Assembly: GCF_055900595.2 (NCBI RefSeq)
Contig: NZ_CM148325.1
Length of the DNA: 64,000 nt
Direction: 5' to 3' (one strand)
A program made the position numbers and the translations under genes. Positions 56,377 to 63,084 of this stretch are shown here, one piece after another; the first letter of the stretch is position 1, and each line of letters begins with the position of its first letter. The notes beneath the pieces were generated by a model. It was not told the origin of the DNA. It was given only the letters and a program-made list of their open reading frames with translations, and did no database searches.

Positions 56377-56997
56377 TTATTTTTTCGCCGCGAAACGTGC
56401 CGCTGCTTCGTCCCAGTTCACCACGTTCCAGAACTCTTTGATGTAGTCAGGACGGCGGTTCTGGAATTTCAGGTAGTAAGCATGTTCCCACACATCCAGG
56501 CCCAGAATCGGGAAGCCGGAAGCGCCAGAAATAGCTTCACCCATCAGCGGGGAGTCCTGGTTAGCAGTAGAAACCACCGCCAGTTTATCGCCTTTCAGCA
56601 CCAGCCATGCCCAGCCGGAACCAAAGCGGGAAGCTGCCGCTTTCTCAAATTCTGCTTTGAAGTTATCAACGGAGCCGAAGTCACGTTCGATAGCCGCTTT
56701 CAGGTCACCCTGTAAGGTGGTGCCTTTTTTCAGACCTTTCCAGAACAGGCTGTGGTTAGCGTGACCGCCAGCGTTGTTGCGCAGTACGGTTTTCTTGTCT
56801 GCTGGCAGCTGGTCCAGTTTGGCGATCAGCTCTTCAACCGGCAGGTTGGCAAATTCTGGCAGGCTTTCCAGCGCCGCGTTGGCGTTGTTGACGTAGGTCT
56901 GATGGTGTTTGGTGTGGTGGATTTCCATGGTCTGCTTATCGAAGTGCGGTTCCAGGGCATCGTAAGCATACGGCAGGGATGGCAGGGTATAGCTCAT
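56377..56997 (-). CDS. sodA: Manganese superoxide dismutase
   Basis: [40 protein letters not shown]… 206 aa. Confidence 0.95.
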
Positions 56998-57070
56998 ATT
57001 CATCTCCAGTATTGTCGGGCGGCCGATTGTTAATGCCGCGTAAGCAGTTGGTTCATTATAGTTAATTAAA

Positions 57071-57281: not shown

Positions 57282-58316
57282 ATGAGTAACGCGATTACGA
57301 TGGGGATATTTTGGCATTTGATCGGCGCGGCCAGTGCAGCCTGTTTTTACGCGCCGTTCAAAAAAGTAAAGAAATGGTCATGGGAAACCATGTGGTCAGT
57401 CGGTGGGATTGTTTCGTGGATTATTCTGCCGTGGGCCATCAGCGCCCTGTTACTACCGAATTTCTGGGCGTATTACAGCTCGTTTAGTCTCTCTACGCTG
57501 CTGCCTGTTTTTCTGTTCGGCGCTATGTGGGGGATCGGTAATATCAACTACGGCCTGACCATGCGTTATCTCGGCATGTCGATGGGAATTGGCATCGCCA
57601 TTGGCATTACGTTGATTGTCGGTACGCTGATGACGCCAATTATCAACGGCAATTTCGATGTTCTGATTAATACCGAAGGCGGACGCATGACGTTGCTCGG
57701 CGTTCTGGTGGCGCTGATTGGCGTAGGGATTGTAACTCGCGCCGGGCAGTTGAAAGAGCGCAAGATGGGCATAAAAGCCGAAGAGTTCAACCTGAAAAAA
57801 GGGCTGGTGCTGGCGGTGATGTGCGGCATTTTCTCTGCCGGGATGTCCTTTGCGATGAGCGCCGCAAAACCGATGCATGAAGCAGCTGCCGCACTGGGCG
57901 TCGATCCACTGTATGTCGCTCTGCCAAGCTATGTTGTCATCATGGGAGGCGGCGCGATCATCAACCTCGGTTTCTGCTTCATTCGTCTGGCAAAAGTGAA
58001 GGATTTGTCGCTAAAAGCCGACTTTTCACTGGCAAAACCGCTGATCATTCACAACGTGTTACTCTCGGCACTGGGCGGTTTGATGTGGTATCTGCAATTC
58101 TTTTTCTATGCCTGGGGCCACGCCCGCATTCCGGCGCAGTATGACTACATCAGCTGGATGCTGCATATGAGCTTCTATGTATTGTGCGGCGGTATCGTCG
58201 GGCTGGTGCTGAAAGAGTGGAACAATGCAGGTCGCCGTCCGGTAACGGTGTTGAGCCTCGGTTGTGTGGTGATTATTGTCGCCGCCAACATCGTCGGCAT
58301 GGGCATGGCGAATTAA
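57282..58316 (+). CDS. rhaT: L-rhamnose-proton symporter
   Basis: [51 protein letters not shown]… 344 aa. Confidence 0.9.
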
Positions 58317-59161
58317 TCTTTCTGCGAATTGAGATGACGCCACTGGCTGGGCGTCATCCCGGTTTCCCGGGTAAACACCACCGAAAAATAGTTACTATCT
58401 TCAAAGCCACATTCGGTTGAAATATCACTGATTAACAGGCGGCTATGCTGGAGAAGATATTGCGCATGACACACTCTGACCTGCCGCAGATATTGATTGA
58501 TGGTCATTCCAGTCTGCTGGCGAAATTGCTGACGCAAAACGCGCTCACTGCACGATGCCTCATCACAAAATTCATCCAGCGCAAAGGGACTTTTCAGGCT
58601 GGCCGCCAGCCGGGTAATCAGCTTATCCAGCAACGTTTCGCTGGATGTTGGCGGCAACGAATCACTGGTGTAACGATGGCGATTCAGCAACATCACCAAC
58701 TGCCCGAACAGCAACTCTGCCATTTCGTTAGCAAACGGCACATGCTGACTACTTTCATGCTCAAGCTGACCGATAACCTGCCGCGCCTGTGCCATCCCCA
58801 TGCTACCTAAGCGCCAGTGTGGTTGCCCTGCGCTGGCGCTAAATCCCGGAATCGCCCCCTGCCAGTCAAGATTCAGCGTCAGCCGCTCCGGGCAATAAAT
58901 AATATTCTGCAAAACCAGATCGTTAACGGAAGCGTAGGAGTGTTTATCGTCAGCATGAATGTAAAAGAGATCGCCACGGGTAATGCGATAAGGGCGATCG
59001 TTGAGTACATGCAGACCATTACCGCGCCAGACAATTACCAGCTCACAAAAATCATGTGTATGTTCAGCAAAGACATCTTGCGGATAACGGTCAGCCACAG
59101 CGACTGCCTGCTGGTCGCTGGCAAAAAAATCATCTTTGAGAAGTTTTAACTGATGCGCCAC
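58313..59161 (-). CDS. rhaR: AraC-family rhamnose regulator RhaR (start uncertain; ORF extends to 59326)
   Basis: C-terminal AraC HTH; start placed at the GTG giving [13 protein letters not shown]… (282 aa); a 312-aa form starting at 59251 is also possible. Confidence 0.8.
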
Positions 59162-59234
59162 CGTGGCTACCTCGGCCAGAGAACGAAGTTGATTATTCGC
59201 AATATGGCGTACAAATACGTTGAGAAGATTCGCG

Positions 59235-60071
59235 TTATTGCAGAAAGCCATCCCGTCCCTGGCGAATATCACGCGGTGACCAGTTAAACTCTCGGCGAAA
59301 AAGCGTCGAAAAGTGGTTACTGTCACTAAATCCGCAGCGATAGGCGATGTCTGTAACGCTGGCCTCGCTGTGGCGTAGCAGATGTCGGGCTTTCATCAGT
59401 CGCAGGCGGTTCAGGTAACGCTGAGGCGTCAGTCCCGTTTTCTGCTTAAGCTGCCGATGTAGCGTACGCAGCGAAAGAGAAAATTGATCCGCCACGGCAT
59501 CCCAATTTACCTCATCGGCAAAATGGTCCTCCAGCCAGGCCAGAAGCAAGTTGAGACGTGATGCGCTGTTTTCCAGGTTCTCCTGCAAACTGCTTTTACG
59601 CAGCAAGAGCAGTAATTGCATAAACAAGATCTCGCGACTGGCGGTCGAGGGTAAATCATTTTCCCCTTCCTGCTGTTCCATCTGTGCAACCAGCTGTCGC
59701 ACCTGCTGCAACACGCTGTGGTTAACGCGCCAGTGAGACGGATACTGCCCATCCTGCTCTTGTGGCAGCAACTGATTCAGCCCGGCGAGAAACTGAAATC
59801 GATCCGGCGAGCGATACAGCACATTGGTCAGACACAGATTATCGGTATGTTCATACAGATGCCGATCATGATCGCGTACGAAACAGACAGTCCCACCGGT
59901 GATGGTATAGGGCTGCCCATTAAACACATGAATACCCGTGCCATGTTCGACAATCACAATTTCATGAAAATCATGATGATGTTCAGGAAAATCCGCCTGC
60001 GGGAGCCGGGGTTCTATCGCCACGGACGCGTTACCAGACGGAAAAAAATCCACACTATGTAATACGGTCAT
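59235..60071 (-). CDS. rhaS: AraC-family rhamnose regulator RhaS
   Basis: [44 protein letters not shown]… 278 aa. Confidence 0.9.

Positions 60072-60325: not shown

Positions 60326-63084
<2,759 letters not shown>

Follow-up and report, generated by a model that had tools for sequence, protein, structure and literature searches.

In E. coli K-12, RhaR (b3906; WP_001336056.1, 282 aa) is encoded by the second gene of rhaSR and activates the rhaSR promoter in an L-rhamnose-dependent manner (PMC9429829). A survey of initiation codons, which takes the GTG annotation for granted, has grouped rhaR with lacI, cra and mlc as genes that are almost exclusively non-ATG (PMC11445065). The window, by which we mean the whole 64,000-nt stretch of DNA that was analysed, has the same gene order, GTG start and 73-nt spacer between rhaS and rhaR as K-12, and the 131-nt junction is identical in K-12 derivatives. 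The encoded RhaR differs from that of DH1/K-12 by three substitutions (K125T, N138S and K227E in 312-aa numbering) and otherwise in nothing of substance. Two lengths of the protein have been in use. The 1987 sequence paper reportedly described RhaR as a protein of 312 aa whose gene overlaps rhaS, and later genetic work is said to have kept the 312-aa numbering. Counted in this way, the window has Asp at both 276 and 285, in keeping with the D276 and D285 reportedly named in genetic studies of RhaR. The legacy 312-aa annotation corresponds to a reading from the ATG at position 59251 of the window, and it finds no support in conservation, the ribosome-binding site (RBS), the family models or the crystallised construct.

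The rha locus of the window runs in the order sodA, rhaT, rhaR, rhaS, rhaB, rhaA, as in E. coli, and the features that matter here are the following.

56377-57003, minus strand: sodA (ORF list)
57282-58316, plus strand: rhaT, an intact ORF of 344 aa (ORF list)
58313-59161, minus strand: rhaR from the conserved GTG, 282 aa plus stop (ORF list, RefSeq 849-nt CDS, NCBIfam)
59159-59161, minus strand: GTG initiation codon of rhaR (all 34 related loci have a start here; PDB 5U93)
59169-59173, minus strand: Shine-Dalgarno (SD) sequence GAGGT, 7 nt from the GTG (16S pairing, conservation)
59162-59234, minus strand: rhaS-rhaR spacer, non-coding, 73 nt (variable length, REP-like insertions and in-frame stops in relatives)
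59249-59251, minus strand: upstream in-frame ATG of the 312-aa reading, inside the rhaS codons GAT GGC; probably not a functional start
59162-59326, minus strand: open stretch 5' of the GTG, a mechanical extension to 337 aa (ORF list)
59235-60071, minus strand: rhaS, upstream gene of the rhaSR operon, 278 aa plus stop (ORF list, NCBIfam, RefSeq)
60359-61828, plus strand: rhaB (ORF list)

The first-pass annotation had described a minus-strand ORF at 58313-59326, 337 aa long when counted from its first GTG and overlapping the 3' end of rhaS, and every one of these coordinates is right. NCBIfam and RefSeq likewise uphold its naming of the two genes as rhaS and rhaR, and both of the starts that it had proposed are present. 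The ATG at 59251 yields 312 aa and lies 17 nt inside rhaS, 14 nt from the rhaS stop (TAA at 59237-59235), which is downstream of it. The GTG at 59161 is 73 nt past that stop and yields 282 aa beginning (M)AHQLK. The corresponding masses are ~32.3 kDa for the 282-aa protein and ~35.6 kDa for the 312-aa reading. We consider it very probable that translation of rhaR begins at the GTG at 59161, with ribosomes that load independently on its own SD, and that the upstream ATG is accidental. Against the GTG reading stand the open E. coli frame that follows the ATG, the greater strength of ATG as a start codon, a predicted hairpin at the GUG and the 312-aa numbering reportedly used in the older literature.

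The position of the start is conserved. A comparative scan with one genome per species gave 39 loci, 34 of which are enterobacterial with rhaS immediately upstream of rhaR; these include Escherichia, Citrobacter, Kluyvera, Leclercia, Silvania, Buttiauxella, Atlantibacter, Cedecea, Budvicia, Limnobaculum and others. All 34 have a start codon at the site that corresponds to 59161 (GTG in 27, TTG in the four loci of the Atlantibacter group, and ATG in three loci of the Budviciaceae, from Budvicia and Limnobaculum), and an SD-like tetramer, mostly GAGGT and ~7-8 nt 5' of the start, occupies positions -16 to -5 in 32 of them. As in regulators of the lacI, cra and mlc type, the GTG of rhaR (TTG in Atlantibacter) is conserved across the Enterobacteriaceae; unlike these, the Budviciaceae orthologues use ATG, and the likeness is one of start-codon sequence alone. 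The conserved weak GTG/TTG start would fit the idea that some sugar regulators are kept low by means of non-ATG starts, and in rhaR it probably holds synthesis of the activator low.

In contrast to the GTG, the frame 5' of it is open only in E. coli and Escherichia sp. MOD1, and stops close it in other genera. An in-frame stop falls within the rhaS-rhaR spacer in 30 of the 34 loci, typically 3-57 nt 5' of the start. The four exceptions are Escherichia sp. MOD1, which is arranged as E. coli; one Buttiauxella, in which the in-frame stop is the rhaS stop itself; and two Atlantibacter-like loci, in which the sole upstream candidate is a TTG deep within rhaS. No overlapping start homologous to the ATG at 59251 was found in the 33 loci other than that of Escherichia sp. 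MOD1. A divergent Escherichia (L004, 94% RhaR identity) carries a 1-nt deletion just 5' of the GTG and a stop 9 nt upstream, so that the 312-aa extension is already broken within the genus. The first-pass annotation had also raised an ATG-linked overlap with translational coupling of rhaR to rhaS. This found no support: only E. coli and the nearest relative sampled have the overlap, the conserved start lies 73 nt past the rhaS stop (71-158 nt elsewhere), and in the conserved arrangement rhaR follows a non-coding spacer with an SD of its own.

The spacer behaves as non-coding sequence, because its length varies across species from 71 to 158 nt and several species carry REP-like palindromes in it. 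REP elements are typical of transcribed non-coding intergenic DNA. The long spacers (128-158 nt) of Citrobacter amalonaticus (L005:2346-2521, L010, L034), Buttiauxella (L016, L020, L021, L023) and the Atlantibacter group (L022, L024, L025, L030) owe their length to inserted palindromic sequence, which has a conserved AATAAT block on one side and the rhaR SD on the other. The inserts of Citrobacter and Buttiauxella are REP/BIME-like, with the form GCCGGATG...CTTATCCGGCCTAC...CATCCGGC, and such palindromes could shift the relative stability of the rhaS and rhaR segments of the mRNA. The open frame of E. coli is unremarkable, because 33% of mononucleotide shuffles of the 73-nt spacer keep the same 24 in-frame codons free of stops. 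The ATG and its open frame would be a chance feature of the spacer in the E. coli lineage.

The stop-proximal half of the spacer (59190-59234 on the minus strand of the window; columns 1-48 of alignment A1) contains blocks that are conserved across the Enterobacteriaceae, in the order TAACGCGAA, ATCACCGTTTT, an inverted repeat made of a T-run and an A-run, and AATAAT. The E. coli copy of these blocks is degenerate (TCTCAACGTATTTGT...GCGAATAAT). RNAalifold returned zero consensus pairs for the spacer and initiation region, the stop-proximal blocks included, no promoter-like or terminator-like sites were found in the rhaS-rhaR junction, and no Rfam family matched the junction at E <= 1. In E. 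coli NCTC9064 (NZ_LR134315.1, L047:1-660), an IS1A copy sits in the spacer ~44 nt 5' of the GTG, at a point homologous to ~59205 of the window. The hypothetical 312-aa extension is disrupted there, and the RefSeq annotation of that strain retains an intact 282-aa rhaR.

The two candidate starts differ in their ribosome-binding sites as well. Duplexes with the 3' tail of 16S rRNA were computed with the requirement that the paired mRNA segment end 3-12 nt before the start codon. The first-pass annotation had proposed a prediction of RBS strength at both starts as a check; when it was run, the GTG at 59161 reached -7.3 kcal/mol through GAGGU (59173-59169), and the ATG at 59251 reached -3.0 kcal/mol through AGGG at a spacing of 5-9 nt. 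Only the GTG, of these two in-frame starts, therefore has a usable RBS. At a spacing of 12 nt the ATG attains -5.1 kcal/mol by a non-SD pairing, and the rhaS ATG at 60071, preceded by AGGAGG, attains -10.3 kcal/mol. A duplex of -7.8 kcal/mol at the upstream ATG was discounted, since it pairs up to position -1, that is, with zero spacing, and gives way to the -3.0 kcal/mol duplex at usable spacing. Predicted local folding, a weak indicator, places the GUG within a small local hairpin of 4 bp with a probability of being unpaired of ~0.

The protein itself is co-linear with its family only from the GTG onward. The three NCBIfam profiles for RhaR equivalogs (282, 282 and 290 positions) first match at residues 32-34 of the 312-aa form. 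The two best of the three, NF010025 and NF010027, exceed their curated cut-offs with full-length matches (572.6 bits versus 525 and 565.4 bits versus 384), their positions 2-281/282 corresponding to residues 32-311/312 of that form. RhaS in turn matches NF010028 over residues 1-278 of 278 with 546.9 bits. When RhaS is compared with the RhaR profiles, its residue 3-4 aligns from profile position 6-7, which means that the N-termini of the two paralogues coincide only with the GTG form, whose N-terminus is within ~3 residues of that of RhaS. Neither the RhaS paralogue nor any of the RhaR models contains anything that corresponds to the 30-residue extension. Downstream of it, the AraC-type cupin domain (PF02311, AraC_binding, residues 52-182 in 312-aa numbering) is followed by two HTH_AraC motifs (PF12833 at 229-305, with two PF00165 stretches), as belongs to RhaR. 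The gene also has the context of rhaR, being immediately downstream of rhaS and divergent from rhaBAD, with rhaT adjoining.

Structural data agree with this boundary. The window RhaR matches the N-terminal domain structures PDB 5U93 and 5U9E with E values of 1.7e-115 and 2e-108, and in 312-aa numbering their chains start at residues 31 and 33, respectively, with MAHQLKLL as the first residues of 5U93. Both chains are without the extension, which indicates that the folded RhaR domain does not need it. What the analysis shows is the conserved position of start and SD, the non-coding nature of the spacer and a fit to the curated models and the solved structure. From this we infer that cells of this strain start rhaR at the GTG, and that they do so independently of rhaS translation; independent, SD-driven initiation is the most likely mode at rhaR. 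Ribosomes would load on GAGGU at 59173-59169, within the 73-nt spacer, and would produce a 282-aa, ~32.3-kDa L-rhamnose-responsive activator of the AraC/XylS family. No direct experimental record of the RhaR N-terminus or of an initiation-site profile was found in the literature searched, and the supplements of TetRP, TRAINSPOTTER and INRI-seq hold no rhaR entries.

Among the alternatives, the one that survives best has both starts in use in E. coli: most of the protein would be the 282-aa form from the GTG, and the ATG at 59251 would give a minor 312-aa isoform specific to E. coli and Shigella, perhaps by re-initiation after the rhaS stop. We regard it as unlikely. The ATG is present and the frame open in all intact E. 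coli junctions that were sampled and in Escherichia sp. MOD1. However, the rhaS codons GAT GGC fix this ATG, and its conservation is for that reason uninformative about its use, while an open frame is expected by chance in about one third of shuffles. The AGGG motif 5' of the ATG is weak and pairs poorly with 16S rRNA at usable spacing (the -3.0 kcal/mol given above). Termination-reinitiation is established for coupled genes, and the rhaS stop is near enough for it in principle. Against the product itself stand the lack of a homologue of the extension anywhere, its breakage within the genus in L004, and the N-terminal domain construct, which could be produced and crystallised on its own with the extension missing. 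In its specific form, ribosomes that terminate at the rhaS stop would, in E. coli and Shigella only, move 14 nt backwards and start anew at the ATG, adding a lineage-specific tail of 30 residues to a minor isoform, and this we hold to be very unlikely. Were it true, a fraction of RhaR synthesis could be tied to that of RhaS.

Polymorphism near the ATG bears on the same question. Two SNPs were seen in a small sample of E. coli genomes, CGC>CGT and GGC>GGT, both of which are synonymous in rhaS; the second would replace Ala with Val at codon 2 of the hypothetical extension. Few as they are, and from a small sample, the SNPs would be consistent with coding in rhaS only.

Coupling might also act on the GTG itself. 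The 3' coding end of rhaS could pair with the rhaR SD and GUG, and ribosomes finishing rhaS would then melt the helix and so couple rhaR translation to that of rhaS. The MFE and centroid folds of 59131-59310 do place ~59296-59255 in a long interrupted helix with ~59185-59141, and the duplex between the two arms is strong in E. coli (-42.6 kcal/mol, z = -2.55, matched by 2 of 200 shuffles), with z ~ -2.5 in Escherichia. However, the z-score of the whole segment is no better than -1.49, a stability that 11 of 200 shuffles reach, and the median z of the inter-arm duplex over 36 loci is -0.65. Cognate arms also pair no better than non-cognate arms taken from other species, being on average 1.3 kcal/mol worse (14 of 31 better; Wilcoxon p = 0.16), and the consensus fold contains no pairs across the spacer and initiation region. 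The two arms lie in conserved coding sequence, and this alone would make complementarity recur. On the whole-segment score, the median duplex score and the comparison of arms, we rejected the helix as a conserved coupling device, and coupling of this kind seems very improbable.

That the ATG at 59251 is the sole start of a 312-aa protein, in an overlapping and translationally coupled rhaS-rhaR pair as in the legacy annotation, can be practically dismissed: the 312-aa protein is abundant in public collections and the reading is longer and begins with the preferred start codon, but all evidence for the GTG counts against it, and a tail found only in E. coli on an otherwise co-linear, conserved regulator is implausible.

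With the GTG at 59161 as the start, the ambiguity seen by the first-pass annotation is real in one respect, as the 312-aa and 282-aa proteins both circulate publicly, each on at least 1000 contigs, together with some 288-aa versions. It goes no further than that, because the GTG is favoured alike by the comparison of loci, the RBS, the curated models and the structures. The 1.2-kb region was found in 5423 of 5426 complete E. coli genomes, and in all eight E. coli genomes that were inspected RefSeq gives rhaR as an 849-nt CDS from the GTG, 73 nt after rhaS. The GTG start is thus already known, being reflected in RefSeq, the curated family models and PDB. The rhaR start question is an ordinary annotation matter that is effectively resolved in favour of the GTG, and the 312-aa ambiguity is a database legacy, which annotation by the longest ORF has probably spread. 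The correct start sets the residue numbering, the 312-aa numbering being offset by 30 from the 282-aa one, as well as the size of the rhaS-rhaR spacer in rhamnose-inducible expression cassettes. It also mends many 312-aa database entries, and matters little beyond such bookkeeping. The 288-aa proteins, found in some Shigella dysenteriae and E. coli records (P0007, P0012), imply a start six codons 5' of the GTG, where the window has CTG; the strains concerned presumably carry a variant at this codon.

The rhaB-rhaA pair, on the other strand, offers a comparison within the same window. Like rhaS and rhaR, rhaB and rhaA are adjacent genes of one operon. In contrast to rhaS and rhaR, which are 73 nt apart and of which the second is served by a separate SD, rhaB and rhaA overlap in an ATGA at 61825-61828, the classic coupled arrangement: the ATG occupies 61825-61827 and the TGA 61826-61828 on the plus strand, with AAGGAG upstream. 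The mechanical ORF list begins rhaA two codons early, at a TTG at 61819.

At the other end of rhaR, the gene converges on rhaT, minus strand against plus strand, and their stop codons overlap by 4 nt at 58313-58316 in a palindromic TTAA. This leaves no space for an intervening terminator, and the K-12 arrangement is identical. The rhaT gene is a pseudogene with an internal stop in E. coli Z0117EC0005 (L002:2635-3669), the closest match of the window at 99.9%.
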